From assembly GCA_030390025.1 (NCBI GenBank), contig CM059432.1, forward strand, positions 16,680,001-16,744,000: a stretch of DNA of 64,000 nt, read 5' to 3'. The translations under genes and the position numbers were made by a program. Shown in pieces: positions 14,145-61,851 of this stretch. Under the pieces are notes generated by a model. That model ran no database searches. It saw only the letters and a list, made by a program, of their open reading frames with translations, and was not told where the DNA came from. The stretch comes from Squalus acanthias (Eukaryota). Numbering within the stretch: the first letter of the stretch is position 1; every line of letters begins with the position of its first letter.

Positions 14145-14816
14145 CAGTAGCGGGCAAAACACGGCCCAAGTGATGTCAGGTGACGAGTCATTGTCTTCGA
14201 GGCAGCAGGGTGTCTAGCAATGGGCCTTAAAGACGGGAGGCGAAGATACGGACAACGGAGGCTGAAGTGGACAGAAGGCAGCCAGGAGTCGCAGATTGGG
14301 CACGGTCCCCCCCAGGGGAGGGCCTTTTACTACGGTAGCGCGGCCCCATAACCAGTGGAGAGCGTGAATGCAGCAGCGAGGAGGGCACAGGCCCGTCCCC
14401 CCCAGCCCAGGCCCAACCCCCAGTAATGGGGTGATTGATGGATGATATCGGTTAACCTGTTATTAACTATCACCTAACTAATTAATGCAAAACTGATGCG
14501 TTTACTAATTAGCATTTTAATTATCTCAAATTTATTTATTTAACACCGATTTATACTAACTGATAATTAGTAAATTAGTAAACAGATTTATTCACTAACT
14601 TAACACCCTCTGCTCGTTAGGCAATTGGTGAGCAATTTAATTGTGCTCATTATTGTATTAATTACACAGCTATTAATTTAAAAGCTGCTGAGCGGCCTGT
14701 GCGGGACCTCCAGACCACTGCGCGTCCGCGCAGCTTAACGGGAACATTGGTGCGCGGCCCTCAACAGCTCACCAAAACTTAAGTGGCCCTCCAGCCCAAA
14801 TAATTGGCCACCCCTG
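14145..14816. mobile_element. Probable hAT/Charlie-type non-autonomous element nested in the LINE
   Basis: Ends CAGTAGCGGGCAAAACACGGCCC and (reverse complement) CAGGGGTGGCCAA resemble Charlie-type TIRs; LINE sequence resumes on both sides; no clear 8-bp TSD. Confidence 0.55.
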
Positions 14817-15570
14817 CTGCACACAGACGTAAGCAAGCCCACAACCAACAGATCAGATGTAAGCTCTGCAGTCCTGCCACATTCCGTCATGAATGGTGGT
14901 AGACAGCTAAACAACTACCTGGAGGAGGAGGCTCCATGAATATCTCCATCCTCAATGATGGCGGAGCCGACCACGCGAGTGCAAAAGACAAGGCTGAAGC
15001 ATTCGCAACCATCTTCAGCCAGAAGTGGCGAGCGGATGATGCACCTTGGCCTCTTCCTGAGGCCTCCACCATCGCAGATGCCAGTCTTCAGCCAATTCGA
15101 TTCACTCCATGTGCTATCAAGAAACGGTTGAGCGCACAGGATAGAGCAAAGGCTATGGGCCCCAAGCCAAGCTGTTCCAGTACAGCTACAACACTGACAT
15201 CTACCGACAAAGTGGAAAATTGTCCAGGTCTGTCCGATCGACAAAAAGCAGGACAAATCCAATCTAGCCAATTACCGCCCCATCAGCCTACTCTCAATCA
15301 TCAGCAATGTGATGGAAGGGGTCATCGACAGTGCTATTAAGCGGCACTTACTCACCAATAACCTGCTCACCGATGCTCAGTTTAGGTTCCACCAGGACCA
15401 CTTGGCTCCAGACCTCATTATAGCCTTTGGTCCAAACATGGACAAAAAAGAGTTGATTTCCAGAGGTGAGGTGAGAGTGACTGCCCTTGACATCAAGGCA
15501 GCATTTGAACAAGGGGCCCGAGCAAAACTGAAGTCAATGGGGATCAGGGCAAAATTTTCCACTGGCTGGA

Positions 15571-17275: not shown

Positions 17276-19333
17276 ATCGTACCTAGCACAAAGGAAGATG
17301 GTTGTGGTTGTTGGAGGCCAATCATCTCAGCCCCAGGACACCACTGGAGGAGTTCCTCAGGGCAGTGTCTTCGGTCCAACCATCTTCAGCTGCTTCATCA
17401 ACGACCTTCCCCCCCATCATGATCAGTTCCATTCGCAATTCCTCAGATAATGAGGCAGTCCATGCCCGCATGCAACAAGACTTGGACAACATCCAGGCTT
17501 GGGCTGGTAAGTGGCAAATAACATTCGCGCCACACAAGTGTCAGGCAATGCCATCTCCAACAAGAGAGAGTCTAACTACCTCCCCATGACATTCAATGGC
17601 ATTACCATTGTCAAATCCCCCACCATCACATCCTGGGTGTCACCGTCGATCAAAAACTTAACAGGACCAGCCACATAAATACTGTGGCTACAAGGTCAGA
17701 GGCTGAGTATTCTGCAGCATGTGACTCACCAAAACCTTTCCACCATTGACAAGGCACAAATCAGGAGTGTGATGGAATACTCTTCACTTGCCTGGATGAG
17801 TGCAACTCTAACAACACTCAAGAAGCTCGATATCATTCAAGATAAAGCAGTCTGCTTGATCAGCACCCCGTCCACCACCTTATACATTCACTCCCTCCAC
17901 CACCAGCGCACCATGGCTGCAGTGTGTACCATCTACAAGATGCACTGCAGTAACTTACCAAGGCTTCCTCGACAGCACCTCCCAAACCCGCGATCTCTAC
18001 CACATAGAAGGACAAGGGCAGCCAGCAGGCGCATGGGAACACCACCGCCACTAAGTTCCTCTCCAAGTCACACACCATCCTGACTTGGAAATATATTGCC
18101 ATTCCTTCATCGTCGCTGGGTCAAAATCCTGGAACTCCCTACTTAACTGCACTGTGGGAGTACCTTCACCACACGGACTGCAACGGTTCAAGATGGTGGC
18201 TCACCACCACTTTCTCAAGGGCATGTAGGGATGGGCAATAAATGCTGGCCTTGCCAGTGATGCCCACATCCCATGAATGAATAAATATTTTTTTTTTCAT
18301 AAAAGTTCATGGCCTCTTGATCTCTTCTATTCCCTCCATTCAGTCATCCATTCACATGATACTTTTCAGTTCACACTTTTTAAAGTCACAAATTCCTATT
18401 CAGTACATCACATTCAGAAGTGCAGCAAAACAGTCAATAGCTGAAGTCAAAACTAAGTATCCATATGCAGTGTCTAGATTACATTAATTTTGGCGCACAG
18501 TTTAGTCAACTTCATATTTTACCTACAGGTCTACAGCAACATAACTTTTTGACTTCTGGTACAAGTTATGAGATAAAAGCTGCCCTGTTAGTGAACCTAC
18601 TTAAGATCACTCACTAAATAATTGAAATGATTTTATTTTGGCAGAATTTTGGTATTAACCTTAGGAAAGGTACCACTTTTCAAACAACTGAAAGGGCTCT
18701 GCAAATATGTTATCCTTCAAATAAACCTATCCCTACAACGAGCAGTTACTGTAGTCCTGTTGTATCGCCTTTCACAACCTCAGGACGTCCCATAGCGCTT
18801 CATAATGAATGAAGTACTTTAGAAGTGTAGTCTCTGTACATGACTCGTAGACTTTTCTTTTTTTTTTAAGTATTTCACTCCAAAAGAAACACACAGGTCA
18901 TATCTTATCTTGACTAGACTGTTGCATAACATTGCTAATAAAGAGCATCCCAAAACAACTCTATTGAATGCAATAGTTCAAGACTAGCCAGAGATCCAGT
19001 CTAGAACTGCATGACCTTGGGAAACCATGCAAGTGAATGGGTGTTTTGCATTCCCAGCCAGTAGTGTGGTTTCTGTGGTTGGCTGGCTCCAGGTTGGCTC
19101 TCAGATCATGCCAAAGTTCAGGCTGCTATTACTTTCAATGGAGCTGCTACAGTACAATCCTTCTGACCTCAATGAGCAACTCAAAGGGGATTTCCGTGGA
19201 GGTAAACCATTGATGATTTAAAAACTCAACAAAATATTTTATAGCAATATCATACCTATAATCTATATCAGCACACCTAGTCAACTTTTGCTATTATAAA
19301 TTCGTATTTCCACATTTATAATAGAAACTGCTT

Positions 19334-29323: not shown

Positions 29324-30212
29324 AAAATCTGTCACTCCCTTCTCCTAAATTCCTTTTATAGTTAAAATTTTTGTTTTAAAGAAAAAAAATGATTTTGCAA
29401 ATGATCATCCTTTGAAATAAATTAGTAATGCATAGTATTGGTTAAAGTTTTCATTTCTTGAAGCACTAAAATCTCAGTCTTTGTCCAGTTTCTTATGAAA
29501 ACCTTGAGGAAATGCACTCGCGCACAATTTATGATTAAATACCATGATATTCACCAAATGTTAGAACATATGCATTTTCAACAGCCACAGGGACAGATCC
29601 ACTTAAAATGAAAGAAAGCTTTGACATCTGACATCCTAGGAACAGCGGGTCAGCTTAAGGCGAACATTTATCCACAAGCTACAAAGCACGTTTCAGAACC
29701 ATCTGCTGATGTAGTGTGAAAGTGAGTGGAACAAAAAAAATTGACAACTGGCAACGTTCCAGATCAAACTGGTACAAATTACAGTAACCTGTTCCATAAT
29801 GAATCCAGTCACAATTATGCTAACTCTTAGAATGTTCAACATTCATGCAGTGTTGTTTCTCAAAAAGCCTTGCAGACATTGTACAGGAAACTTTCGTTTA
29901 TCCGGCACCCAAATAACCGGAATTCTCGCTTAACCGGCAAAAATCATCCTCCGAAAACTCCTCTCAAATAACCGGCAATGTTGCCGAGTCGCAGTCGAAT
30001 CTCCGCGAACGCCGAGTGCTCCGAAAACTCCTCTCAAATAACCGGCAATGTTGCCGATCCCGAGTCCGAGTCAGAGTCCGCGAACGCCGATTTAGTCAGT
30101 AGGGGTACTTTTCAAAAGTGCCACTACTCGGCCTCCTGGCGCTGTCGCAAGTCCGAAACATTGCAGTAGCATGAGTAGATTCTCCCGCGCTGCCTGGAGT
30201 CTCTTCGGATCG

Positions 30213-30425
30213 GCCATTTTGCTGGGTGTCTCCCACGATGCTGGTAGTCTCTTCTGATCCACCATTTTGCTGTGTGTCTCCCACGCTGCTGGTACTGTAG
30301 TCTCTTCTGATACACCATTTTACTGTGTGTCTGCCACGCTGCTGGTACTGTAGTCTCTTCTGATCCACCATTTTGCTGTGTGTCTGCCACGCTGCTGGTA
30401 GTCTCTTCCTAGCCACCATTGTTCT
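30213..30425 (+). repeat. Tandem ~46-51 bp repeats in the Tigger 5' region
   Basis: Four-plus copies of ccattttgctgtgtgtct(c/g)ccacgctgctggta(ctgta)gtctcttctgat. Confidence 0.85.
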
Positions 30426-30472
30426 GTGTGTCTTTCCATCTTCATCGGCAATTATCTCCTCCATCTTGCATT

Positions 30473-32230
30473 ATGGAATTCCCAAAAGCTGGACCAAGCA
30501 AAAGGAAGAGAGTGGTCTTAACTTTAAAACAGAAAATCGAGATATGCCAACGACTAGAAAGGGGAGAGAAGCGTATCAACATTATGAATGAATTCAAAAT
30601 CGGTTCGTCAACAATCTACGACATCAAATCGCAGAAGGATAAGCTGCTCAAGTTTTATTCAAGCTCGGAGACATGCAAGAGTGTAGAGAAACGGCGTACG
30701 CTTCGTAAGCCTAAGCTTGAAGAGCTGGATACCGTGCTTTATGAATGGTTTTCTCTTAAGCGTTCAGAGGGTGTTCCAATTTCCGGACCCATGCTCATCG
30801 AGAAAGCGAAGGAATTCTACGATAGGATGGAGCTCACTGACAAGTGTGCTTTCTCCGATGGATGGCTAACGTGCTTCAAGTTACGGCACGGGATACGACG
30901 ACTCGATATTTCCGGGGAGAAGAAATCAGCTGATCACGAAGCCGCAGAAGAATACTGCGATTATTTCAATCGGATTGTGCAGCAACATGATTTGTCGCCA
31001 GCACAGATCTACAATGCCGATGAAACTGGCTTGTTTTGGAGGTTTTTGCCAGAATCAACGCTTGCTGGGGCTAGTGAGGCTAATGCTTTAGGTTACAAGA
31101 AAAATAAAGATTGTGTAACCGTGCTAACATGTGCGAACGCCGCTGGATCACACCGGGTTAAACTTCTTGTTATCGGGAAGTATAAAAATCCCCGTGCATT
31201 TAAAAATGTGAGGCACTTACCTGTTGAGTACAAAGCTCAAAAAAATGCTTGGATGGATAAGGAAATCTTCTCCGATTGGTTCCATCATATTTTTGTTCCA
31301 TCTGTGAAGGAACATTTCCGCAGAATAGGGAAACCTGAAGATAGCAAATGCATTTTATTGCTTGATAATTGCAGAGCCCATCCGCATGAATCCCAGTTGG
31401 TTTCGGGAAATATTTTCACCATTTATTTGCCACCAAATGTAACTTCTCTCATCCAACCCATGGACCAGGGCGTTATCCAAAATCTGAAGTGTCATTACAA
31501 GAAAGACTTCCTATGTAAACTGCTAAGCCAAGATGAGAATATTCAAGATTTGCAGAAGGAATACAATATTAAAGATGCCATCTATAATGTTGCATGTTCC
31601 TGGAAATTGGTGAAAGGTCACACTCTGAGGCAAGCCTGGCGCAAATTGTGGCCTTCTGTAATGTTTGCTGAAGGTTCTTCTTCAGAGGAGGAATTTCATG
31701 GGTTCAGTGTTCGTCCCAAGAAGAGTACAATAATGGAAATGGCTGGAATGGTGAAAAATGCAGGCCCAGCAAACCCTCTACGTCACCTCAGTGAAAGTGA
31801 TATCGAGCAGTGGGTTGATGCAGATAGAGAAGTTGGTGTTGTGCATATGCTAAGTGATGATGAAATAATTCAGAATGTTTTGAATCCAAAGAAAGAAAAG
31901 GAAAGCGAGATGGAAAGTGAAGAGGATGAGATTTCTGAAGAAGAGAAGATTTCTTGGGCTAAAGCTGCAGAAGGATTTTCTACAATCCTCAAATTTGCTG
32001 AAAGGCAGAATTGCTACTCTGCACAAGAAGTTATGCAACTCCATATTCTGCATTCCACCTTTCTACAGAAAAGGCAAGAGTCCACTAAGCAAACCGACAT
32101 CCGCAACATGTTTAAGAAAGCTTCCAAAAGAGTCGCAGCAGCGGAAGTGCCTGAAGAATCGGTGGAACTGCGTGATCCTGATGACCCAGCTGGCACGGAT
32201 ATTTCTGATGAACCAGATGACTCGGAATAA
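30473..32230 (+). CDS. Tigger/pogo transposase (CENP-B-type HTH + DDE_1, DD32D), 585 aa
   Basis: ATG at 30473; [36 protein letters not shown]-x32-QPMDQG, acidic C-terminus; no stops or frameshifts. Confidence 0.95.
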
Positions 32231-36525: not shown

Positions 36526-36640
36526 AAGGAACCACAGAAAAGCAAAACAATAAAAAGCTAAACTCTGAAATGCTTTGTAGTGCAGTGTGTGAGTGTACTA
36601 AATGCCTTAGAGAGGAATTCTTTCTCCAAGTCTCCATATA

Positions 36641-37059
36641 CAGGAAACTTTCGTTTATCCGGCACCCAAATATCCGGAATTCTCGCTTAACCGGCAAAAA
36701 TCATCCTCCGAAAACTCCTCTCAAATAACCGGCAATGTTGCCGAGTCGCAGTCGAGTCTCCGCGAACGCCGAGTGCTCCGAAAACTCCTCTCAAATAACC
36801 GGCAATGTTGCCGATCCCGAGTCCGAGTCCGAGAACGCCGATTTAGTCAGTCGGGGTACTTTTCAAAAGTGCCACTACTCGGCCTCCTGGCGCTGTCGGA
36901 AGTCCGAAACACTGCAGTAGCAGGAGTTGATTCTCCCGCGCTGCCTGGAGTCTCTTTGTTAAAAATAGCCTCGGTAGATATAACTCTCCGTTATCCGGTA
37001 CTTTCGATAAACCGGCACCACGCCGGTCCCGTCGATGCCGGATAAACAAAAGTTTCCTG
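36641..37059 (+). mobile_element. Tigger-derived MITE (419 bp)
   Basis: Same TIRs (one mismatch), TA TSD, and same internal junction as 3448-3872. Confidence 0.96.
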
Positions 37060-37604
37060 TACTAAGTTCCAAACTCTTGACCATCAGAAGCCAGGATAAT
37101 CCATGTCATTTTCAAGTACCTCCTAAGAACTTGTTTGGAGAGAAATCAGGAAACTGATTGCCTGCTGCCCACTCAGCTAAGTAAAACAGCAAGGGAACTT
37201 GAGAAGGCAGAGAAAAATAAATTACAATGACGATGTTTAGGATAAAATTATTTTATTAAATGATACTTCATTGTGCATTCTCCTTTTCAAGTTTAAATAA
37301 TAAAATGACAGCATTTGGGATCTGTGACAGGTCTCCTGAACAATTGTTTTTTCAAAACAAACTTCAATGCTATGAACACCTCCATGGTATACGGTGCACA
37401 ATTCTACTTAACTTTGTAGCTCAATTCAAGGTCAAAATGAGGTTAACAAGCTACAGGTCAATACTAATCAGTATCCAGATGTCTTATTAAACTGTTTGCG
37501 CAGATTGAAATAAGCAGCTGAAGAGAGTCGGGCGATGATCAGAATCAAGATCCTGGTCTATTGCTAGAATGAAGTGGGGCCTGTGTTTTTGCTAAGGCAG
37601 TGAT

Positions 37605-40400: not shown

Positions 40401-40959
40401 ACGGAAGGAAGGAAGCAAGGAAGAGCACCCAATTTGCACGGGCTGAAGGGCACATTTGTGGAGCCTGCTAGCCACATTCAACTGGAAAAATCCAGCAGGG
40501 GCTTGCCCAGGCCCATTCAGTGTAGTTTTGCCCCCTGTGTTTGGGGACTAATCCAGATGTCTTCAAAAATATTTAGCAGTCTTTGGGGGTTCAGGCCACT
40601 TCTCGGCCTGAACACCTCCCCACCCTCCCCCTCATCCCACTCCAGGGTGGGCCCTACTTGCACACATCTGCAGGCTGGTAAGCTTCATTTCTCGGTGTAC
40701 TGACCTCTAGTTCAATGTTGGGTCCTAAGTGCTCTACCAGTTAGACAACGGCTTCCAGTATTATCTGGATCCAGTGGGGGAAAACCCCAATGACAGGTTA
40801 GAAATGGAAGACTGGAATTGGGGCATAGGGTTGGAGCTAGGAGCTAGGATGGACTTTAGGATGATCACAAGATTTTGAAGTCGATGAGTTGAGAAACTTG
40901 GAGCCAATGTCGATTGATGATGAATGTGTTGGAGGTGGTGGTGGAGAGGAGCTGGGTAG

Positions 40960-42142
40960 TGTTAGACATTAGGGGTACCTAAAATGTATATGGTTATGCG
41001 AATGAAATAGCGACACAAATAATACTGTGCTTAAATGATTGTATTAGAGCTCGAGACAAGTAAAGGGGTTAATGTATATGTTGTGTTTTACTGGAACTGC
41101 TTAAGTTTCGTTTTCCTGGAAAACTTGCGAAGAAGCTATAAAATTTCACACAGTGGAAGTCACATATGACCTTGCTTCGCAGGTTAGTTGTCTGCTGTTT
41201 GTGCGCTAGGAAGGTTGCTGACTGTATCTTTAGTTTGGCCAACCAAGGCCCAATGCTCATGTTTCTTCCATTACCGCTAATGACCATATTATAATGCTAA
41301 GTTAGGATTTGTTTAACAAAGCTGCTTGCTAAGACGCGTAAGTTAACCAGTGTGTGAGAATAGAATAGAGGATAGCTTTGGGAATTTAATGATTCATTTC
41401 ATGGTACAATAGTCTGATAATGAAATGAAATAGTTAGTTTGCACGGCCAGCTGCATGAACATAAATAACTGATAACAAGCAGTTCCAACAATGGGGCCTC
41501 TGACTGGAAGAGTCTGAAGGCCAAGCCTGGTATGTCTGAGTTGCTGACTCTAGCTTGGGGAAGACAGGGCCGGATGAGATAAGGGGAAAACAGTCATCAA
41601 CATGCTGTAAGGCCATGATTGGCTAGGTACAGAAACCATGTGTAATGGCTAAAAGGACCCCTGACAGGTGGAAGATAACAGGAGGGTTGACCCTTTTTCT
41701 ATGGTTTAAACAAAGAACTCGACATACCATTGGGCACCTTGTTTTAAGGGGAATCTCTACAGATTAAATGGTCTTATCAATATTCTACCTCAGGTCCACC
41801 CCTAAAAAAGGGTATAAAAGAAAGACCTGAGGGTAGATCAATGTGGACTTCAATCTAACACTCTTGGGCAGTTCAGAAAGGGTTCCTGAGAGTGGATCTA
41901 TGCGGACTTTGGTCGAACACTCTTGGGTAGTTCAGGAAGAGAGAGGAAGAAGAGCTGTTCATGCACGCCAGCTGTATGTCCGATCGGGGTCGTACTCGCT
42001 ACTTGTCACGGTCGTATGTTTTTGCTGTATAACTAGTGTGTTATATTCCATCTTAAATGCCGATTAAACACAATATACCCACCATATTGGTTTGCACTCG
42101 ATCCTGATTATTTGAAAGACCAGAGATAAGTTAATCTCAACA
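40960..42142 (+). mobile_element. Solo LTR (1183 bp)
   Basis: TGTT...AACA termini, 4-bp TSD GTAG, TATAAAA at ~41813, ATTAAA at ~42064; both ends homologous to 46679-47737. Confidence 0.9.
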
Positions 42143-43006
42143 GTAGGCTAGCGAGGAGAGCATTGGAGAAATTGAGCTTTGAAGTGAGAAAGTTATAGAT
42201 GGTGATTTCAGTGGTGATGGATACGGTAGAGAAAAAGACAGGAAAGGTTCGGGAGATCAAAATAAGCAGTCCATCTGCGGTGCATCAGATGTAGGGTCAT
42301 ACAGGACAGAGATATTGCACACCTTCCCAAATGCAGTAGTACAAAAACATTCTTGCTTTATATTTGGGAGCACATTAAAATATTTATATTGGTCAGATTC
42401 TTAAAGTTTGTGAAGTTGAAGTATTAAACTGGCTTTTTAAGATCAGCAATGAACAGGTTAGCATTTGTAAAGATGAGCTTTATATTGTGTGCAAAACAGT
42501 ATAGCTGTTGCTTGAATGAGATTGCCTATTGTACACTTAATGAGTTTTCACAGGAGCAAATAATGGGACTAAAAAGTGTAACTGACAGCACTTGGCTCAA
42601 ACCATATTTCCCACAAACTGAATTACTAATTATGGTTGGATTGTCAGAGAGCACAGAGGCCAGAAGGCAAGATGTTCAGCCACAAGGATAAAGGAATCAG
42701 AAAAAGAGAACAAAAAAGCAAAGCAACTGAAGCCACTTTCATATTTCCTAGCCACCAAATATCGAACAATGGAAACGTGGGAATGTTTTTGTTGCAGGAT
42801 CTAAAAGGGGGCATTGTAAAATATATTGTTATATAAATAACATGATTAACATTGAAGCACAAGGTAAATAGTTCAATACCTGAAACCTTTGTACAAAAAT
42901 ATTGTCTGAAAACTATATACAGTATTTGATCTGGATTACAAATGTTAAGCTAAAGTTGCATTTATGGTCCACAGAGCAGGGTTTCAAATTAACTTTGAAG
43001 TCCATT

Positions 43007-45864: not shown

Positions 45865-46560
45865 AGGGGACATTAAAGAACCACTTTCAGGATGCTTGGC
45901 AGCCTTTGGATCCCTTGGACCTCGAGAACTTTATCCAGCAAGAAACCAACCTTTGTGGCCAAATCTTCAAAGGTATTCAACAACCTGAAGACAGTATAAT
46001 TTACACAAGCCAGAAGCACAGGCAAGTAGCTTACACATTTCAACTGGTCAACAATTTTGTCCAATGCATTCTTAACATCTAGCAATATATGGATGAGGCT
46101 GATTCAGTTAAAGGTTTTCCACAAATTCCATTATACACCCCAAAAAATGGCTAACTGGCTACTTGTTGGAGAGAAGGTAATGTTGCTGTGATTGAGAAGA
46201 GGGTACACTTAGTCACTTATTGTGGCACTATCCTAAAATCTTCCCCTTCTGGAGGCTGTGATGGATGCCGTGGACAGGGCAGGGATATAGCTGTTGATAA
46301 TGCTCCTAAACTGTGTTAGTCGAGACTTATGTCAAAGATGAAAGCTCCAGTGTTCACATAGAATGATTCTATCAGCACGATTTACAGCAAAGAGGTTTTG
46401 GAGAAGTTGCAAAGATTACGACTTGCAAAGATCAGAAGTTCCAATCCTCCAAATCCAAGTTCAGCCTAATATTATCTCTAATTTTTCTTCTTGTAGCTTA
46501 AATTTGAGCATGTATTCCACCAAATCATCTAAGCATCAAATCTTGTGTTGTATTCAATTT
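45865..46560 (+). pseudogene. Ancient L1-clade ORF2 C-terminal fossil
   Basis: Manual translation gives SNIWMRLIQLKVFHKFHYTPQKM then (frameshifted) TCWR...GTLSHLLWHYPKIFPFW, a decayed L1/Tx1 zf-RVT CCHC region. Confidence 0.65.
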
Positions 46561-46678
46561 TAAACAATAAAAGCAGATTGACTAAAAAAACTAATTTTTA
46601 TTACAATCAGTTAACATTCATTTGTGGACTACCTGAGCTAAATTATGAGATACTAAATATGACATAGTTTAGCTGTTT

Positions 46679-49080
46679 TGTTAGAAACTAGGGGTGCCTA
46701 AAAATATACATGGCTACGCAAATAATACTGTGTTTAAATGATTGCATGTTTCTGCTCGAAACAAGTAAGGGGCTAACGTACAAGTTTTAATTTTCCTGGA
46801 GGCTTGTATTAGACTTTGAGACAAAATGTTTTCAGTTAGTTAGATTGTTTGTAAGTTAGGGTTTTGACTGTGTTAATGTATCTTTAATTTGGCCAATGAA
46901 GGCCCAACCTAAGTTTCTTCCATTATTACTAATAACCATATTATAATGCTACGGTAGAATTTGGAGTTTGTTTAACAGAACTAATTGTGAAAATAATTAA
47001 AAGTTAATTAGTATTGAAAGACATAGAATAAAAGGAATTTAGGGGAGTTAAGGTATGCATCTCAGGATGGAGCAGTTTGCTAGATGAAAGCGAGATAACG
47101 ACCGGCTGAAGTGGGACAGCTCTGGCTTGGGCCTCATGATTGAAAGGGGACAAGGTCAATTGTACCAATTGTACCAGGGAGGATAGGGACCAGGGAGATA
47201 GGATGAATTCCAATGGAGGAACCTTCAAAATGTAAAAATAAGAAAGATAAATTGGCTGAGATCATGAGACCCCTTTGAGGGAGGGCTTTCATCTAAGAAT
47301 TGAGACAAAGAACTCGACGTTCCATTGGGTACTGAGGTTTTGGGGGAATCTCTATAGGTTAACTGGTCTTGTCAATAATTTGGCCTCAGGCCCACCCCTA
47401 AAAAGTGAATAAAAGTAACACCCAGAGTGCTTGTCCATGCAGACGGTGGAGGGAAGAGCTAAACAAAAGTTGGACTGGTCGAGCGCTCTTTTGAGAGTGA
47501 TCCCATGCTCACCAACTCGGAGGTTCGAGACGAGAAGAGAGGCCGCAAGCCAGAGAACTGTTCACGCAGGCCAGCCGTCTGTCCGATCAGGTCCGGTATC
47601 AGCTACTTGTCACGGTCGTATGTTTTTGCTGTATAACTAGTGTGTTATATTCCGTCCTAAACGCCGATTAAACACAATATATCCACCATATTGGTTTACA
47701 CTCGACCCTGTTTACCAGAGATACGCGAATCTCTACAAAGTGGCGAGCCGAGCCAGGAGTGCAAAAGGGTTGTTGTGGTCGAAACGAGTTGAGGATGGGT
47801 TCGGTCTATAAGGGTACTGGGGGCTGTTATCGGGTTGTAAAGCACAAACGAAAAGGCGGATGCGCATTTTAGAGAAAAGGTTGCGAACAGTCTCTCGGAT
47901 AAGTTAGGGGCCCCAAGCGATAATCGAAATAGTGCAGGGTGATGAGAAGAGTTACTCTGAGATTTGGGGCGAGATAGCATCCCAGGTGGGTGCGAAGAAA
48001 TGTAAAGTTAAATAAGCCAGAAATAGGCTGGCTTACGTGGCGAAGTTGTACTCCTGAAAGAGAAAAATGCACAACTTGAAAGAGACTTACAAGACTGGCA
48101 AGGTCGACACATCACAGCCTGTGCCCTTCTCCGCCAAGAGCAAGCCTTGGCAGATGAAGCACGACTTGCCTCAAGACGCCAACATCAGGTGTATGAGGAT
48201 AACAAAGGTTTAAAAATAAAAAAATGAATCCCTAATTTCACAACTTGAGGACACCAGGGGGGACTTGAGAGAATTACTGGAAAAAACCCCTCTGGTGAGC
48301 ACTGACCATACTCACTGCGAATTAGAAATTATGGAATTGAAGGGAAAACTGGGGAGACAAACGGCTGCTGTTGCGGCCGTCAGTCGCCTTAAACCAGGGG
48401 ATCCCGGTATTAACTGGGACGATCCAACAAGAAAAGCCCAGTGCAATAATAACCCCATCTGCCAAAATAGTCCCTCACCCTCTGCCTCCCTATCCAGGAC
48501 AAATGCCCCAATAGAAACCAAGCAGGTTAATATAGTCACTACTACCACCCGATTTGGTGACCCTACACCCTCGGATGATGAATTCGATAATGATACCTCC
48601 TCTGTAGCCGACAACCTGCCCCCAAACGAGGAAGTAACTACTACTACCAGTAGAAGTTTGACCCCGGTGGAGTGCAAAGCACTAGCCGAATAATTGGGGC
48701 CAATAAACTGGGGGACGAACCCAGTCGCCCGAACAAGTGATTGGGGTCGTTTCGTCGCTGTCACCCTGAGTTAGAGTGAACAGACTTAAAACAAGTTCTG
48801 TTATCATGCATCTCAAAGGAACTCAAGTTATCACTCTCACGGGAAATCTATGATAAAAACAAGGGGTGGTGGGATGTCATGGATTCAGTTTGTTCCCGTT
48901 TGGGCATGGACTCAGTTAATTTCACGCGCACGGCTGGGGATGCCCGGCAAGAGGCTAATGAACATCCCGTGGCCTTTGCAAATCGACTATGATTTGTATG
49001 ACCAGTCCTTGAAAAACCATAATGGTCAAGGGTTTTGGGACACTGAGGGATTTAAGCTGACAGTGCATCCCCTTTCAATT
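46679..49080 (+). mobile_element. 3'-truncated LTR retroelement/ERV: 5' LTR (46679-47737), PBS, degenerate gag
   Basis: TG...CA LTR related to the solo LTR; PBS at 47741; coiled-coil/Pro-rich gag-like ORF 48265-48693; MHR-like RQEANEHPVAFANRL at ~48945-48990; no pol or 3' LTR seen. Confidence 0.8.
47741..47760 (+). promoter_or_regulatory. Primer-binding site complementary to tRNA-Arg(ACG)
   Basis: TGGCGAGCCgAGCCAGGAGT versus expected TGGCGAGCCAGCCAGGAG (one inserted G), 3 nt after the LTR CA. Confidence 0.8.
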
Positions 49081-51700: not shown

Positions 51701-52029
51701 ACTTCTGCCAACAACCAAAATCTAAGATAATCTGGTCAATTTATTTCATTGCTGTTTGTGGGAGCTTGCTATGCGCAAATTAGCTGCCATGTTTCCGAGT
51801 GGCCATGATGTGGAGATGCCGGTGTTGGACTGGGGTGGACAAAAGTGAGAAGTCGCACAACACCAGGTAAAAGTCCAACAGTTTTATTTGAAATCACAAG
51901 CTTTTGGAGCTGCTGCCCCTTCGTCAGGTGAAGTGAAGGAATACGAATCAGCAAAGCATATATAGACAGAGAACAATGCATGTGTAGCTCTACAGCAAAC
52001 GCCGCAACCTCGAAACCAAGATAGAGTCC

Positions 52030-54285
52030 ATGCTCTCAGCCTGTGCTCAGGACACAGCAGACCAGCTACGAGACACCGCCAAACAGACGAGGCAACGGAA
52101 CTACGCTGCCTACATGCGCATCAAGAACAGGAAGCTTGAGAAACTCGGCATCACCACCAGCAGCAACCAAGCCTCCCCCGGTACCACGGTTGCAACCACA
52201 GGGAAGTCCATCGTCAACTTGTCCGACCACACCCTTCAACCAGATGAAATCGAAATTCTTGCCCTAGGGCTCAAGTTCTGCCCCACCACCAAAATGGACC
52301 CCATCGGTCTCGCGGCAGACACAGAGGAATTCATCAGGAGAATGAGGATCCGGGAATTCTTCCACGAATCCCAAGATGTCAGCAACGAACCCAATGAGAC
52401 AATCAATGATCCGGAACAGCAGACAGAGGGACTCGCAGTGCAGCAACCGAAGAAGAAAGAGTCAAATTGGACCCCTCCGGAGGGTCGCTGCCCTAAGCTT
52501 GACATGTATGCTCAAGCTGTCAGGAGATGCATCAACGCCAGATTCATCAGCTGCACTCACAAGACAGTACAGAATGTCACCCGAGCACAACGCAACGCCA
52601 TCCACGCTCTCAAGACCAACCGCAACATCGTCATCAAACCAGCAGACAAAGGAGGAGCCATCGTCATACAGAACAGAATGGACTATTGCAAAGAAGCATA
52701 CCGACAACTGGACAACCTGGAACACTACAGACAGTTACCCGCAGATCCGACCAAAGAACACACCCGCCAACTCAATAGACTGATCAAGACCTTCGATCCA
52801 GACCTTCAAAGCATCCTACACGCTCTCATCCCACGTACTCCCCGCGTGGGAGACTTCTACTGCCTCCCAAAGATACACAAAGCCAACACACCCGGACGTC
52901 CTATCGTATCAGGCAACGGAACCCTGTGTCAGAACCTCTCTGGATACGTTGAGGGCATCCTGAAACCCATCGTACAGGGAACCCCTAGCTTCTGCCGCGA
53001 CACCACAGACTTCTTACAGAAACTCAGCACCCACGGACCAGTTGAACCAGGAACACTCCTCGCCACGATGGACATATCGGCACTCTACACCAGTATTCCC
53101 CACGATGACGGCATCGCTGCGACAGCCTCAGCACTCAACACCAACAACAGCCAATCTCCAGACGCCATCCTACAACTCATCCGCTTCATCCTTGACCACA
53201 ATGTCTTCACCTTCGACAACCATTTTTTTACCCAAACACACGGAACAGCCATGGGGACCAAATTCGCACCCCAATACGCCAACATCTTCATGCACAAGTT
53301 CGAGCAAGACTTCTTCGCTGCACAGGACCTCCAGCCAACGCTGTACACCAGATACATCGACGACATTTTCTTCCTTTGGACCCATGGCGAAGGATCACTG
53401 AAAAGACTACACGATAACATCAACAAGTTCCATCCCACCATCAAACTCACCATGGACTGCTCCTCAGAATCGGTTTCATTCCTGGACACACGAATCTCTA
53501 TCAAAGACGAACACCTCAGCACTTCACTCTACCGCAAGCCCACGGACAACCTCACTATGCTCCACTTCTCCAGCTTCCACCCTAACCACGTTAAAGAAGC
53601 CCTGCGAATACACAGGATCTGCTCAGACGAGGAGGAACGCGATGGACACCTACGGACGCTGAAAGACGCCCTCGTAAGAACGGGATATGACGCTCAACTC
53701 ATCGATCGACAGTTCCGACGGGCCACAGCGAAAAATCGCATAGACCTCCTCAGAAGGCGAACATGGGACACAACCAACAGAGTACCCTACGTCGTCCAGT
53801 ACTTCCCCGGAGCGGAGAAACTACGCCATGTTCTTCGCAGCCTTCAACATGTCATCGATGACGACGAACACCTCGCTAAGGCCATCCCCACGCCTCCACT
53901 ACTCGCCTTCAAACAGCCGCCTAACCTCAGAAGTACCATCGTTCGCAGCAAATTACCCAGCTTTCAGGATAACAGCGACCACGACACCACACAACCCTGC
54001 CACGGCAACCTCTGCAAGACATGCCAGATCATCAACACAGATACCATCATCACACGTGACGGACACTGCGCAACAATCGCCAGGCAGGATTGTTACCTCC
54101 CAGTCAGGGAACACTTCAGCAGTCAAGGACATTCAGCCTCGGATCTGCGGGTAAGCGTTCTCCAAGGCGGCCTTCGAGACACACGACAACGCAAAATCAT
54201 CGAGCAGAAACTGATAGCCAAGTTCCGCACTCATGAGGACGGCCTCAACCGGGATCTTGGGTTCATGTCACGCTACATGACGTAG
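52030..54285 (+). CDS. Penelope-type reverse transcriptase with partially deleted GIY-YIG endonuclease (751 aa open frame)
   Basis: KPADKGG, LPKIHK, GRPIVS, DISALYTSIP, GTAMG, RYIDD, FLD, YRKPT; C-terminal CxxxxCxxC, EHF and GLNRD present; GIY/YIG motifs absent. Confidence 0.92.
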   Translation: MLSACAQDTADQLRDTAKQTRQRNYAAYMRIKNRKLEKLGITTSSNQASPGTTVATTGKSIVNLSDHTLQPDEIEILALGLKFCPTTKMDPIGLAADTEEFIRRMRIREFFHESQDVSNEPNETINDPEQQTEGLAVQQPKKKESNWTPPEGRCPKLDMYAQAVRRCINARFISCTHKTVQNVTRAQRNAIHALKTNRNIVIKPADKGGAIVIQNRMDYCKEAYRQLDNLEHYRQLPADPTKEHTRQLNRLIKTFDPDLQSILHALIPRTPRVGDFYCLPKIHKANTPGRPIVSGNGTLCQNLSGYVEGILKPIVQGTPSFCRDTTDFLQKLSTHGPVEPGTLLATMDISALYTSIPHDDGIAATASALNTNNSQSPDAILQLIRFILDHNVFTFDNHFFTQTHGTAMGTKFAPQYANIFMHKFEQDFFAAQDLQPTLYTRYIDDIFFLWTHGEGSLKRLHDNINKFHPTIKLTMDCSSESVSFLDTRISIKDEHLSTSLYRKPTDNLTMLHFSSFHPNHVKEALRIHRICSDEEERDGHLRTLKDALVRTGYDAQLIDRQFRRATAKNRIDLLRRRTWDTTNRVPYVVQYFPGAEKLRHVLRSLQHVIDDDEHLAKAIPTPPLLAFKQPPNLRSTIVRSKLPSFQDNSDHDTTQPCHGNLCKTCQIINTDTIITRDGHCATIARQDCYLPVREHFSSQGHSASDLRVSVLQGGLRDTRQRKIIEQKLIAKFRTHEDGLNRDLGFMSRYMT

Positions 54286-54595
54286 ATGACTCCAGTCGTC
54301 ATTGGCTTGTTCACAGATGTGATTTCCAGTAAAAAAAAGTAAAAAAATTTAAGTTTATGGTTTTCCATACAGACTGCAGCATTTGACACATTAGACCCCC
54401 TGTGACCCCACCTCATTGTCTCAGTTGTATCTTGCTATGTCTTTGATGTGGTGCCTTCCTGGCTGACCTGATTGTTTCTCTGCCAAGGTGTGACGAAAGG
54501 CAGTCAGGAGGATTAAATGTAGTCGTCTGACATTGTACGCTACACATGCATTGTTCTCTGTCTATATATGCTTTGCTGATTCGTATTCCTTCACT

Positions 54596-54633
54596 TCACC
54601 TGACGAAGGGGCAGCAGCTCCGAAAGCTTGTGA
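54596..54633 (+). ncRNA. Minimal type-I hammerhead motif in the Penelope pLTR
   Basis: UCAC-CUGACGA-A-GGGGC(agca)GCUCC-GAAA-GC-UU-GUGA; the inverted copy at 51894-51931 has GAAA>AAAA. Confidence 0.75.
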
Positions 54634-56804
54634 TTTCAAATAAAACTGTTGGACTATAACCTGGTGTTGTGCGACTTCTCACTTATGTTTCCTAGTGACT
54701 GCACTCCAAAAGTAATTCATTGTCTGTGAAGTGCTTTGGGACATTGAGGTTGCGAAAGGCACTACATAAATGCAAGTCTTTCTTTCTACATGATGTCAAT
54801 GCATTGTCAACCCAGGAAATGATCTGAGAAACAGTACTCGACTTTTAAACATATTCCAACAGACAGTCCAGATCACAAAGGGATGCTATTGTTATATCCA
54901 TCAGTCACACTATTGTGCATTTAGATATAGGGAAGTGCAAGGCAACTCGCATAAAACTAAGAAAATTCAACTACTTATGAGAGCAACTGGCATCATTGGA
55001 ACCAAGAACATATCTATGGCAGACCCAAATTTGTAACAGCAAGGATTGAGCATAATTCTGTCGCTCAATTTTTCAACTTCATGGTTAATGGTTTTGATTG
55101 TTGATATAAAATATTTAGTTGACCATATGACAGCGTGGCAGAGAAATTTTGCATATATGATAGACAAAGTGTACTTAAACATACTGCTTTTATATTACTA
55201 GCAGATAACCAGTTACGTTTCCTTAGTGAATCAGATAATGCTATTTTATACAGTCCATGTTATACCATGCAATGCTTCTTTGGTGAAGCTGTGTCCTTTT
55301 AAAACCAGTCAAATTACTATTATGTAACACTGGGTGCATTGATCAGTTGAATTGTTTTTGAAACTGAATGACACAAACCTGGCTTTCTTGGCCTTTTTCT
55401 AAAAGGTGTTTATTGTAAAGTCATTCATAAGTTAGATGTTCTAGCTCCTGCGTCTATGACTGTCTTTGTTGTGAAGTGTGAATTGCTAAGTTCACTGAGA
55501 GGTTAGAAATTCTAGCTCCTGTGTCAAATGAATGCTTTTTAATGAGGCACTTTGTGTGTGATGGAGAAATGTGGCAGACAGGAACTAACCTGTTAGACTT
55601 CGCTTTTTTAATAACTGATGTGACATAGAAGGTAGAGGAACGTGATCTCCTGTGATGTTGCTCATGGCAAATTATATGATACACTGTTTGCTAAGGCCAG
55701 GAGAGTTACAGCATTCAATGCAAAATGTATTATTCCACTGTTAAGGTGCAGCTACATCTCTTAAGGCCATAAAGTCTAATTGTTAGGTAAACAAAGCCTC
55801 ACATCAATCAGAGTTTAATTACTTGGCAAGTGAAATGTGCAAGGCGAGATAAGTCTTAGTTTAATTGCTCTTCAAGCTGCAAGTCAGAAGTCAGGATGAA
55901 ATGTCTTGCTTGCTCTTTTTTTAAAAAAGGTGTCATTGTTAAGGTTATTTTTAAGTCATATGCTACCGACACTGTGTCTCCTGTGTGAATATTAAGGTAT
56001 CTTCTGCTGATGGGAGCTTCTCTGTACATTACAAATGACTAGCTTTCATTATTTTTGAAAACAAAGTTTGTTCGAAGAAACATACCTATGAGCAAGAAAT
56101 TTGTAATTAAGTGACAAAAGATATTATAGGAAATGTCATGTGACAGGCAGGACCTGCAGACACGAATATATTTATTTTTGATTGAATGCATCATTACAGT
56201 TCCACAGCAGGCTAGTAAGTTTCACTTAGCTAGCTCAGCAACCATTCAGTGATTTTTTTATTTGTTCAATTCGGAAGGAGTTACTGATTTTAAAAATGAT
56301 TTTTATTCAATTCTATACCAACAGAGGGGGGTTTCTGATTGAATAATCTGATTGAATGGCCGTACAGGCTCGAGGGATTGAATGGTCTGCTCATGTTCCT
56401 ACATTGCTACTTATGAAAATTAAGGGGCCGGAATTGGCTGCAGCGGGGTGTGCCCGGTTACTTAGACTTTCCTGCACCCTGCAGCTCACTCATTTTTTGC
56501 CCTGTAAGTAGCTGGAAGTGTGAGCTGAGAATGGGCGAGGGCGAGTACAACAAGGCATCTGTGACCTTGGTGAACGAAGGGTCCAACAGGGTGTCTCCTT
56601 AAAAAAGGCGGCCGCCTCCACCGACCTCACCCCATCTGCCACAAAAATGCTCATACATGCTTTTGGCATCTCCTACCACAATTATTCCAATGCTCTTCTG
56701 CCCAGCCTCCCATCTTGCAACCTCCATCAACTTCAGCTCATCCAAAACTGTGCTGCACATATGCTATCTTGCTTGGCCATCACCCCTCTCCTCGCTGACC
56801 ATGT

Positions 56805-57885
56805 TACATAGAATATACAGCACAGAAACAGGCCATTCGGCCGAACCAGTCTGTGCAGGTGTTTATACTCCACACGCGTCTACTCCCATTCCATCCACCT
56901 CAGCTCAGCCTTTCAGCATATCTCTCTGTTCCCTTTTCTCTCACGTACTTGTCTGGTTCCTTTTGAAAGTATCTTGAGCTATTTGCCTCAATCACTTCCT
57001 GTGGTAGTGAGTTCCACATTCTAACATATCTGAGTAAAGAAATGTCTCCTTATTTCCCTATTGGATTTATTAGTATTTAACTTGTATTTATGGCCCCTAG
57101 TTTTGGATTCTCCAACAAGTGGAAACATTCTTTCCAGATCTACCTTGTCCAACCCATTCATAATTTTAAAGACCTCCATCAGGTCAAATCTAAGCCTTCA
57201 CTTTTCGAAAGAAAACAGCCCCAGCTTATTCAATCTTTCCCGATAGCTGTAATCTGTCAGTTCTGGTACCATCCCTGTAAATCTTTTTTGCACTTTCTCC
57301 AGTGCTTCTATGTCCTTGTTATAGTACCGTGTACAGTACTCCAAGTGCGGCCTGACCAGGGTCCGATACAGGTTTAGGATAACTTCACTATTTCTGAATT
57401 CTATACACCAAGAAATAAATCCCAGTGCTTTGCTTGCATTTTTAATTGCTTTGCTGACCACCAATGTTGCTTTTAATGATTTGTTCACCTGTATCCCTAG
57501 ATTCCTTTGCTCTTCTATCCCATTCAGTTTCTTATTTTCTAAGATGTAGGTGATGCTTCTGTTTTTCCACCAAAGTGCATCACCTCACATTTATCTCTGT
57601 TAAAGTTCATTTGCCACTTAACTGCTCACTCTGCAAGTTTTCCAATGTCGTCTTGTGTTATGTTGCATTCTTCCTCTGTTAGCTATACCCCCCAGTTTGA
57701 TATCATCTGCAAATTTTGCTATTAAGTTACTTATGCCTAAATCCAAATCATGAATGTAAATTATGACCAACAGTGGTCCCAGCACTGATCCTTGTGGAAC
57801 ACCGCTTTCTACCTTCCTCCAATTTCAATAACTATCCTTTACCCCTACTCTCTGCTTTCTATTTTTTTAAGCCAATTGCAATAGA
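56805..57885 (-). mobile_element. CR1 fragment
   Basis: LYRTLVRPHLEYC, EKVQKRFT, and a VPQGSVLGP-type sequence at ~57775-57805. Confidence 0.85.
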
Positions 57886-60005
57886 TTCAGAACAGATCTA
57901 GCAGCTCTAAACTGGGCATCCATGAGGCGCTGTGGGCGATCAGCAGCAGCAGAATTGTACTCCACCACAATCTGTAACCTCATGGCCCGGCATATCCCTC
58001 CCTCTACCATTACCATCAAGCCAGGGGACCAACTTTGGTTCAATAAGGAGTGTAGAAGAGCATGCCAGGAGCAGCACCAAGCGTACCTAAATATGAGGTG
58101 CCAGCCTGGGGAAGCTTCAACACAGGACTACATGCATGCAAAAAAGGAGAAGCAGCATGCTATAGACAGAGCTAAACAATCCCACAATCAACGGATCAGA
58201 TCAAAGCTCTGCAGTCCTGCCACATCCAGTCCTGAATGGTGGTGGACCATTAAACAACTGACGGGAGGAGGAGGAGGCTCCATGAATATCCCCATCCTCA
58301 ATGATGGTGGAGCCCAGCACGTGAGTGTAAAAGACAAAGCTGAAGAGTTTGCAACCATCTTCAGCCAGAACTGCCGAATGGATGATCCATATCGGTCTAC
58401 TCCTGAGGTCCCCACAGCACAGAAGCCAGTCTTCAACCAATTCGATTCACTCCATGTGATCTCAAGAGACGGTTGAACGCACTGGATACAGCAAAGGCTG
58501 TGGGCCCCGACAAAATCCCGGCTGTCGTGCTGAAGACTCGTGCTCCAGAACTAGCCACGCCTCTAGTTAATGTTGTTCCAGTACAGCTATAACACTGGCA
58601 TCTATCCGACAATGTGCAAAACTGCCCAAGTTATGTCCTGTCCATAAAAAGCAGGACAATTCCAATCCAGCCAATTACCGTCCAGTCAGTCTACCCTCAC
58701 TCATCGGCAAAGTGATGGAAGGTGTCGTCAACAGTGCTATCAAGCAGCACTTACTCACCAATAACCTGCTCACTGATGCCCAGTCTGGGTTCCGTCAGGA
58801 CCACTCGGCTCCAGACCTCATTACAGCCTTGGTCTAAACATGGACAAAAGAGCTGATTTCCAGAGGTGAGGTGAGGTGAGACTGACTGCCCTTGACATCA
58901 AGGCAGCATTTGACCGAGTGTAGCATCAAGAGCCCTAGTAAAACTGAAGTCAATGGGAATCGGGGGGGGAAAACTCTCCACTGGTTGAGGTCATACCTAG
59001 CACAAAAGAAGATGGCTGTGGTGGTTGAAGGTCAATCATCACAGCCCCAGGACATCGCTGCAGGAGTTCCTCAGGGCAGTGTCCTAGGCCCAACTATCTT
59101 CAGCTGCTTCAGCAATGACCTTCCCTCCATCATAAGGTCAGAAGTAGGGATGTTCGCTGATGACTGCACAGTGTTCAGTGCCGCATGCAGCAAGACCTGG
59201 ACAAAATTCAGGCTTGGGCTGATAAGTAGCAGGTAACATTCGCACCACACAAGTGCCAGGCAATGACTATCTCCAACAAGTGAGCGTCTAACCACTACCC
59301 CTTGACATTCAACAGCATTACCATCGCCGAATCCCCATCAATATCCTGGGGGTCACCATTGACCAGAAACTGAACTGGACCAGCCACATAAATACTCTGG
59401 CAACAAGAGCAGATCAGAGGCTGGGTATTCTGCCCTGAGTGTCTTACCTCCTGACTCCCCAAAGCCTTTCCACCATCTACAAGGCACAAGTAAGGAATGT
59501 GATGGAATACTCTCCACTTGCCTGGATGAGTGCAGCTCCAACAACACTCAAGAAGCTCAACACCATCCAAGACAAAGCAGCCCGCTTGATTGGCACCCCA
59601 TCCACCACCTTAAACATTCACTCCCTCCACCACCGGCGTACCGTGGTTGCAGTGTGTACCATCTACAAGATGCACTGCAGCAACTCGCCAAAGCTTCTTC
59701 GGCAGCACCTCCCAAACCCACAACCTCTACTACCTAGAAGGACAAGGGCAGCAGGCGCATGGGAACAACTTCACCTCCAAGTCACACACCATCCTGACTT
59801 GGAAGTATATCGCCGTTCCTTCATCGTCACTGGGTCAAAATCCTGGAATCCCTACCTAACAGCACTGTGGGAGTACCTTCATCACATGGACTGCAGCGGT
59901 TCAAGAAGGCGGCTCACCACCACCTTCTCAAGGGCAATTAGGGATGGGCAATAAATGCAGGCCTTGCCAGCGATGCCCCCATCCCATGAACGAATAAAAA
60001 GAAAA
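57886..60005 (+). mobile_element. 5'-truncated copy of the APE-RT LINE family of 12289-18290
   Basis: GVPQGSVLGP, MFADD, YKAQVRNVMEYSPLAW; 3' end ccttgccagcgatgcccccatcccatgaacgaataaaaagaaaa. Confidence 0.9.
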
Positions 60006-60659
60006 ATATTTAGTATCTCATAATTTAGCTCAGGTAGTCCACAAATGAATGTTAACTGATTGTAATAAAAATTAGTTTTTTTAGTCAATCTGCTTTTATT
60101 GTTTAAAATTGAATACAACACAAGATTTGATGCTTAGATGATTTGGTGGAATACATGCTCAAATTTAAGCTACAAGAAGAAAAATTAGAGATAATATTAG
60201 GCTGAACTTGGATTTGGAGGATTGGAACTTCTAATCTTTGCAAGTCGTATTCTTTGCAACTTCTCCAAAACCTCTTTGCTGTAAATAGTGCTGATAGAAT
60301 CATTCTATGTGAACACTGGAGCTTTCATCTTTGACATAAGTCTCGACTAACACAGTTTAGGAGCATTATCAACAGCTATATCCCTGCCCTGTCCACGGCA
60401 TCCATCACAGCCTCCAGAAGGGGAAGATTTTAGGATAGTGCCACAATAAGTGACTAAGTGTACCCTCTTCTCAATCACAGCAACATTACCTTCTCTCCAA
60501 CAAGTAGCCAGTTAGCCATTTTTTGGGGTGTATAATGGAATTTGTGGAAAACTTTAACTGAATCAGCCTCATCCATATATTGCTAGATGTTAAGAATGCA
60601 TTGGACAAAATTGTTGACCAGTTGAAATGTATAAGCTACTTGCCTGTGCTTCTGGCTTG
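60006..60659 (-). repeat. Near-identical inverted duplicate of 46006-46660
   Basis: Reverse complement aligns end to end; I saw only ~4 substitutions and one 1-nt indel; ORFs 46363-46563(+) and 60103-60303(-) encode almost the same peptide. Confidence 0.97.
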
Positions 60660-60699
60660 CCAGCGATGCCCACATCCAATGAAAGAATTTTCAAAAAAT

Positions 60700-61115
60700 T
60701 GCTATCCGTTCAGCTATTTGTCCTCTGACTCCACATGCCCCCTAACCTTTGTCATGAGATCCTGGTACCCTCAGCACCTCAAATTTACAATTCTCAACCT
60801 TGTATATAAATCCATCCATGGCCTCCCCATCTCTGCAACCTCCTCCAGTCCAACAGACCCGCCCCACCCCTACACCAAAATGTTTGACTTCTCAGACATC
60901 AATGTCTTGTGCATTCCTCCCTTCCTTCACTACACATTGGTGGCCATGCCTTCTGCCACCTAGGTCCCACTCTTTGTAATTCCCTCACCTCCCTCTCTCC
61001 TTTAAAACACAGCTCTTTGGCCAAGTTTTTGGTCACCACTCCTGATCTTCCTTTCTTCAGCTTGGTGAAATTTATTTCCTTCACGTCTCTGTAACGCACA
61101 TTTGAACACTTCTCT
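60700..61115 (+). mobile_element. Degenerate L2 3' fragment
   Basis: FTILNLVYKSIHG...IGGHAFCHLGPTLCNSL. Confidence 0.65.
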
Positions 61116-61551
61116 ATTTGAATGATGCCCATTACTTCTGTTGTCAGGCTCAAGTTACATAACTGGTTATGTGGTGGTTTATGTATTTTTTGCCAGTTGA
61201 CTGCTAATTTAATTTTACCAAGTGTTTTTGTACTCAATCCATCATTGTTGCCCTGTGACAATGACCCTACCTCACCTCATCTCACTCTGTGCAGGAAACG
61301 TGATGGAGGAATTGATGTACCTGTATTATATTTCAAGTTTTTGTGGTCTCCGACCCCACCTAATTATTTTTTCGTAAACAAAATGAATTTTTCCTGTCCG
61401 TCCACAACTTTGGATGATCATTTAAAACATCTAAGCACCCATTTCAGTGCACCTATTCAGATCATTTCTACCTGCAAATTCATAGAGATCCCAAAATGTC
61501 ATTCAAACATCCTCACCCTACAGAGAATGAGTATTTCAGACATGAACTCAC

Positions 61552-61639
61552 CTGTTGATAAAAGAAATTTAAAGAAGGCTTGTCTTCACTGAACTCGTTC
61601 AGGAAACCTTTTGGTAGATATCTGACTCGTAACTCATAT
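61552..61639 (-). CDS. PTK2: PTK2/FAK coding exon ([29 protein letters not shown])
   Basis: Minus strand: atcctcccag|ATATGAG...CAACAG|gtgagt; 88 nt, phase 2/0; matches [32 protein letters not shown]. The six exons are collinear and phase-compatible. Confidence 0.97.
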
Positions 61640-61851
61640 CTGGGAGGATAAAAGAAAATATTAGATTAGCTGTTGCTCTCAAAGCTGACCAACATTGTTG
61701 AATACTTTTTGATTCATTTTTAAGAAACCAATGTCAAACCTGATGATATGCAAAATCTTTGAGTTGAAATGAATCAGCATTTAAAAATGTTACAGGCTAT
61801 TATTGTGTATTTTCATGCAGTGAGGATAAACACATGATTTATGGTGATCTA

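Follow-up and report, generated by a model that had tools for sequence, protein, structure and literature searches.

Chimeric retroinsertions and inverted repeats kept alike by gene conversion are both known kinds of sequence arrangement. The FLNA-EMD repeats of mammals are inverted repeats homogenised by gene conversion. An old inverted repeat of the same behaviour is known from the flip/flop region of Saccharomyces (PMC9731477). Tripartite chimeric retroelements have three co-oriented parts that derive from abundant small or mobile RNAs, with the 3' end of a long interspersed nuclear element (LINE) at the target, a single pair of direct repeats enclosing all parts and a switch near a predicted hairpin, and double template switches inside one target duplication have been described for them (PMC2104539). 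In chimeric LINE-1 insertions, non-LINE sequence is joined to a truncated LINE 3' end (10.1101/2025.02.02.635956), and complex L1 insertions with several templates and locally templated pieces have been seen experimentally (PMC11702581, 10.1101/2024.08.27.596794). Repair-mediated duplications copy a unique donor, nearby on the same chromosome, into a transposon at microhomology (PMC2671141). Here, we describe a 2.8-kb composite insertion in an intron of PTK2 of Squalus acanthias, in which an inverted copy of a piece of that same intron is flanked by two 3' ends that belong to a single decayed LINE family. The locus, by analogy, works like a tripartite chimeric retroelement, and we do not assign it to any one family. 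The piece in the middle comes from a unique stretch of the local intron, the outer two both come from the 3' end of the same LINE, the target duplication is 4-6 nt instead of 14-16 nt, and one junction has microhomology, all unlike the elements described (PMC2104539).

The window is the whole stretch analysed, 64,000 nt of contig CM059432.1 (GenBank assembly GCA_030390025.1, positions 16,680,001 to 16,744,000, forward strand), and positions below are counted from its first letter. Four of 24 listed short-read contig sets were aligned to 57300-61800, namely, X1 from the same species (organism A, either the assembled sample or another) and X21, X20, and X23 from relatives G, H, and I, respectively. 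Contig results hold among the pieces listed in these alignments, and variant results hold among 40 of 298 rows.

Positions 60006-60659 are the reverse complement of 46006-46660, with 99.24% identity over 655 columns (4 substitutions and one 1-nt indel) and a spacer of 13,345 nt between the arms; no third copy of the 655-base segment was found in the 64-kb window. A first-pass annotation of this DNA had reported such a copy, ~99% identical, between two LINE 3' ends, joined through a CTTG overlap to a second LINE 3' terminus of ~40 nt, and both the copy and the terminus (60656-60698) were recovered here. The three fused parts are co-oriented as transcripts, with the LINE 3' end outermost. Junction 1, between tail 1 and the copy, overlaps the donor by 0-1 nt, and junction 2, between the copy and tail 2, has the 4-nt microhomology CTTG, which can be extended imperfectly against a sister copy of the LINE.

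The composite interrupts an older LINE fossil that we take to be CR1-like. An RT-like (reverse transcriptase-like) reading of this minus-strand host repeat runs on across the insertion site, and several matches of its left part to other repeats in the window stop at 57876-57877. The entire composite is enclosed by a pair of AATTGC words, a feature missing from the first-pass account. The TTGC part of the word is unambiguous, so the duplication is 4-6 nt long; the chance of such an enclosing word is 2e-4 for 6 nt and 4e-3 for 4 nt. The unbroken target site appears as a joint 57867 -> 60709 in multi-copy paralogous contigs. Taking this joint in G and H as an orthologous empty site was rejected, as its depth is 63-93, several-fold above the single-copy value, and other letters lie between, which marks paralogous copies of the host repeat.

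Read depth in the same species agrees with the assembly. The single-copy flank has a depth of 14-15 in X1, and the segment is covered by two contigs, 60006-60223 at 31.6 and 60226-60630 at 35.3; the former begins exactly at 60006, and the latter stops just before the difference at 60631. Because depth over the segment is about twice the single-copy value and a contig starts exactly at the boundary, there are two near-identical copies in this species, not a misassembly. The same depth of ~2x speaks against a high-copy repeat, a concern that had also been raised. The window copy has three letters (60233, 60287, and the gap) that X1 does not show.

The relatives place the duplication before their split from this species. 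A 98-nt contig of H crosses junction 1 (59958-60054, 48 and 49 letters per side, depth 20.5) with 1 difference (P=0.12 at H's overall divergence), while H as a whole differs from the window at 36/~960 flank positions (3.75%) and 15/345 segment positions (4.3%), and G differs at 23/~535 segment positions. Both G and H show two versions of 60026-60154, each near single-copy depth, one of 138 nt with 1 substitution and 9 gap letters and one of 130 nt with 6 substitutions and 1 gap. Further along, H has a double-depth piece (60125-60245, 35.3), and donor-side contigs have depths close to those expected for two collapsed copies (H, 18.8 observed and 19.0-19.7 expected; G, 11.7 observed and 11.8 expected). 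In G, the depth left over is consistent with two paths into the segment. At exactly 60659, contigs from all three relatives depart from the copy and extend 486-873 letters, as donor contigs would, and I has a depth of 0-4 at 60018-60319 and carries no information on the copy there. Since H has junction 1 and G and H each have two versions, the duplication predates the split from these relatives, which are ~4% diverged. The first-pass annotation had noted that the copy looks younger than the LINE, and the tails suggested a much younger copy (3/33 differences; P ~0.001-0.002 at the divergence of the arms); this reading is wrong, overturned by the relatives' contigs, in which the copy is older than the split and homogenised.

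The arms are far more alike within than between species. The two copies in the window differ at 4/654 positions, against 23/535 between species for G (Fisher P=2e-5), that is, 0.6% within and 4.3% between. Without conversion, ~25-28 differences would be expected between the window's copies, and 4 were seen (P<3e-7). Of the 20 listed variant rows in the segment, 16 have G and H each unlike either copy of organism A, and I shares all 4 of those 16 rows where it has any depth. At 60225, the base is G in both window copies and T in relatives G and H, and T makes up 24/38 of the depth in X1. At 60287, where G and H lack C and the window copy has A, the double-depth contig of X1 carries the donor's C; this suggests a derived base that conversion moved from the donor to the copy in some haplotypes, with conversion still segregating. 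Contigs drop rare variants; a dropped fork at 60287 is unlikely because the balanced forks at 60225 and 60631 were retained. The likeness of the arms within G and within H relies on collapse of the copies as judged from depth. We consider it highly probable that this is an old duplication whose arms gene conversion has kept alike. Conversion at a rate on the order of 1e-7 per site and generation would be enough; the estimate uses a rate of 7e-10 taken from another species and so gives no date (PMC10587355). As the copy predates the split and its arms are homogenised, their 99% identity is no clock for its age, and more generally, the near-identity of a local duplicate does not date it.

Like the flip/flop and FLNA-EMD repeats, the locus is an old inverted pair, near-identical within and divergent between species, that could flip the DNA between its arms. 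Unlike them, its arms are 655 bp long and non-coding and lie in one intron, so a flip would move no exon; the window haplotype keeps the two halves of the host fossil co-oriented. Between species, the segment has diverged at least as fast as the flank, and this lack of conservation argues against function; no function is needed. A 655-bp non-coding inverted pair, 13 kb apart, has very probably been homogenised in parallel in lineages ~4% apart.

TABLE 1 Features at and around the composite insertion, in window positions
Feature	Position	Strand	Remarks
Captured copy of 46006-46660	60006..60659	(-)	PTK2 sense when read in LINE direction; double depth in X1
Donor segment	46006..46660	(+)	Same PTK2 intron
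Differences, copy/donor	60233 A/G; 60250 T/A; 60287 A/C; 1-nt gap near 60552; 60631 A/G		
Non-LTR (long terminal repeat) retrotransposon (the LINE), 5'-truncated and decayed; RT region and 3' end	57880..59995	(+)	Antisense to PTK2
Tail 1, LINE 3' end with A-rich tail	59963..60005	(+)	
Tail 2, 3' arm of the same LINE end	60656..60698	(+)	
Predicted 3' stem-loop of the LINE	59941..59985	(+)	Inner loop is CTT, where tail 2 begins
Target-duplication-like word AATTGC, left copy	57874..57879	(+)	
Target-duplication-like word AATTGC, right copy	60697..60702	(+)	AA common to tail
Older CR1-like LINE fossil hosting the insertion, left part	57046..57879	(-)	63-74% matches to other window repeats
Older CR1-like fossil, right part	60703..60760	(-)	Co-oriented and continuous with 57879; aligns with window paralogues
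PTK2 (focal adhesion kinase [FAK]) FERM exon opening the intron	61552..61639	(-)	Matches focal adhesion kinase 1 chains, E ~4e-13

The LINE, tail included, spans about 57880-60005 (Table 1). The first-pass annotation had the element right and its start, 57886, a few bases too far to the right. An RVT_1 match lies at 58886-59233 (E=2.6e-10), and a three-frame translation, counted by eye, has ~10 frame changes plus stops. Against the sister copy at 13872-18282, 254/1968 columns differ (12.9%). We call the LINE shark-type because its two nearest named protein relatives are shark proteins. Pieces of its open reading frame (ORF) also occur in three NCBI shark protein models (P0001-P0003; aldo-keto reductase, storkhead-box, and JmjC), which are probably mis-annotated repeat exons. 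The sister copy (13872-18285) is interrupted at ~14142-14815 and contains an inverted CR1-like element at ~15570-17280, which is 92-94% identical to 10429-11723. Nowhere in 2126 nt does the sense strand of the LINE have four T in a row (2.8 such runs expected, P=0.06), and T-runs end both tail 2 and the sister copy.

The two tails are related and unlike. Tail 2 differs from tail 1 at 3/33 bases and then, after GAAT, at 5/10 bases (P 0.001-0.005 if the tails were once identical), while tail 1 has hardly changed in H. The loop of the hairpin predicted at the LINE 3' end contains junction 2, and tail 2 is exactly the 3' arm of this hairpin; the same fold is predicted in the sister copy, and a DNA hairpin is likewise predicted there. 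The end of tail 2 (60680-60693) is self-complementary, with 5-bp arms around GAAT, and is possibly snap-back filler at the 3' junction. The LINE-end motif had 0 matches in metagenome, viral, and prokaryote collections, and Rfam gave 0 matches in the window.

PTK2 lies on the minus strand. Donor and copy share one intron because exons at 61639-61552 and ~39456-39402 flank both; the latter and further exons at 36178-36116, 20516-20462, and 6652-6512 we take to be FAK exons. Exon matches and strand bear out the earlier statement that the copy is in PTK2 sense within the intron that holds its donor. Target and donor are 11,219 nt apart, or 8,369 nt without an intervening element (51839-54688) with a 765-aa open RT frame flanked by 150-nt inverted ends (97% complementary), which we take to be Penelope-like. 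An 80%-identical direct repeat (46671-47985 and 40950-42330), presumably LTR-like, begins ~10-20 nt from the donor end. With this repeat beside the donor and the Penelope-like element in between, the gap may once have been shorter, and antisense transcripts from the LTR-like repeat, if driven, could supply an RNA 5' end near 46660. The donor had been labelled a decayed L1 fossil. We found no real match to it in Pfam (3 frames), PDB, or two protein searches, and the single match returned in the L1-fossil searches (P0005) was discarded as a spurious repeat match; the label was not confirmed, and the donor's resemblance to an L1-type C-terminus is presumed.

The likeliest origin is a single retrotransposition with two template switches, a tentative choice to which we give a little less than an even chance. 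RT would have been primed at the AATTGC target on the 3' end of the LINE RNA and copied ~43 nt up to the hairpin loop. The cDNA end would then have paired through CTTG with a PTK2-sense template 8-11 kb off and copied 655 nt, after which RT would have switched, without any homology, to the 3' end of a LINE RNA and copied 2.1 kb. The inverted arms would then have recombined ectopically, with one being copied repeatedly onto the other in each lineage. A single double switch predicts an enclosing target duplication, two independently formed tails, switching at the hairpin, and a jump to a 3' end that uses no homology. The remaining divergences (3/33 in the tails, 6 substitutions in ~69 nt in one G/H version, and 12.9% in the LINE pair) are compatible, on these sequences, with one age for LINE and copy. 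The joint reading, in which one double-switch event was followed by gene conversion that kept the likeness to the donor, is also held tentatively, at somewhat under an even chance. We lean slightly toward nascent intron RNA, not DNA, as the template of the second step. The PTK2-sense orientation doubles the odds for an RNA template. The captured intronic piece has no splice or editing mark. The first-pass annotation had RT switch from a LINE 3' end to the nascent host transcript and then to another LINE RNA 3' end. The target duplication and the unlike tails fit the retrotransposition in that account; its RNA template and its pair of switches in one event are conjectural, and we regard its exact nascent-RNA version as unlikely. 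The corresponding mechanism, in which the LINE RT stalls at the 3' hairpin within a transcribed gene, copies nascent intron RNA in cis, and restarts on the LINE 3' end, is likewise rather improbable as a whole.

Several points weigh against a single double switch or an RNA template. No listed contig in any of the four runs bridges junction 2, and none in X1 bridges junction 1; in the relatives, junction 1 is seen in one 98-nt contig of one run (H) and, for G, is read from depth. Among the runs of the three relatives, neither a site with the LINE alone nor an orthologous empty site was seen, so the concern that relatives might carry the LINE without the duplicate was not borne out, and co-arrival of the parts is presumed; for LINE-1 chimeras, co-arrival was tested across many species (10.1101/2025.02.02.635956), against three relatives here. 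A DNA template would give the sense orientation 50% of the time. Few sites underlie the age figures, the patch of 6/69 being a selected one, and the hairpin has a z-score of only -0.8 to -1.5, which is weak. At the switch sites described in fungi, microhomology is lacking and target duplications are 14-16 bp (PMC2104539), and the local templates of human L1 insertions are pieces of genomic DNA that typically measure <250 bp and lie no farther than 15 bp from the site (10.1101/2024.08.27.596794), against 655 bp from 8-11 kb away here.

Three other histories were rejected. Inversion with staggered breaks does not fit host fossil halves that are co-oriented and continuous, 3' transduction from the donor site does not fit a LINE without a match beside 46660, and a mobile family of LINE plus segment does not fit a depth of only ~2x. 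Two others deserve more weight. In one, LINE and tail 1 arrived first and, in a second event before the split from G and H, a short LINE 3' end with the 655-nt piece entered the A-rich tail, with one template switch and the same conversion afterwards. Nesting of retroposons in A-rich tails is common, one switch is needed instead of two, the unlike tails are accounted for, and the A-run of 4-5 nt present on both sides could be the second insertion's own short target duplication. The second insertion must, however, strike the ~10-nt window between the tail and the old target duplication and belong to that LINE's family and share its orientation; the parts show no gap in age, and no relative with the LINE alone turned up in the three runs. 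We consider this history unlikely. The same grade goes to a DNA repair or replication switch in the LINE tail, of SDSA (synthesis-dependent strand annealing) or MMBIR (microhomology-mediated break-induced replication) type, in which the donor was copied for 655 nt and the end re-annealed at CTTG, ~43 nt back, which duplicated the tail and required no RT for the middle piece. Such a switch needs the fewest templates, all in cis, and suits the 4-nt microhomology and the DNA hairpin predicted there; with the copy now dated as old, the 3/33 tail differences are no obstacle. It predicts tails identical at origin, though, and the 5/10 differences after GAAT, beside a tail 1 that is stable in H, do not agree. 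Repair-mediated duplications are common in vertebrate transposons (824 proximal human and 80 zebrafish cases), and the locus shares with them microhomology and a unique donor on the same chromosome, but the proximal class has microhomology, filler, or deletion at its breakpoints, target duplications of 4-21 nt, donors at <=5 kb, and lengths of <=619 bp, with no poly-A tract in 39/39 cases (PMC2671141), against a 43-nt LINE-end repeat with unlike A-rich tails, a donor 8-11 kb off, and 655 bp here.

The remaining alternatives concern the copy's reality and its persistence. Recent duplication, or else an artefact of assembly or polishing, could be argued from the 99.2% identity, the three window letters absent from X1, and the unbridged junction 2, and is barely credible given the double depth and the start at 60006 in X1, junction 1 in H, and the two versions in G and H. 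Selection, and not neutral conversion alone, might also, with any origin, preserve a long RNA stem whose loop holds 13 kb of the PTK2 intron and so keep the arms alike: they lie in opposite orientation in one pre-mRNA, can pair over 655 nt, and have kept their match in two lineages. The sequence shared by the arms is nonetheless not conserved (4.3% between species against 3.75% in the flank), G and H retain an unmatched patch, and neutral conversion at the rate given above is enough, and we consider such selection very unlikely.

With nascent RNA as the template, a retrotransposon would be able to copy the gene in which it lands, kilobases from the site. The nascent-RNA mechanism, if true, would offer a way to build intragenic inverted repeats in cis, kept competent for pairing across speciation by gene conversion, and a genome-wide class of tail-X-tail insertions would be expected, with X sense-biased and drawn from the same gene. 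As a single and probably functionless locus, the present case has moderate weight. In the literature searched, which was incomplete and whose supplements could hold cases, no description of an arrangement of LINE tail, local intron piece, and LINE tail was found.

Elsewhere in the window, a PTK2 intron contains an uninterrupted 605-aa Tigger/pogo-type transposase ORF (30413-32230; DDE_1, CENP-B_N, and HTH_Tnp_Tc5), preceded by a 48-53-nt tandem repeat. Repeat copies at 3444-3897, 29878-30205, and 36616-37063 are 96-98% identical, two of them inverted relative to the first, and are likely a young dispersed element.

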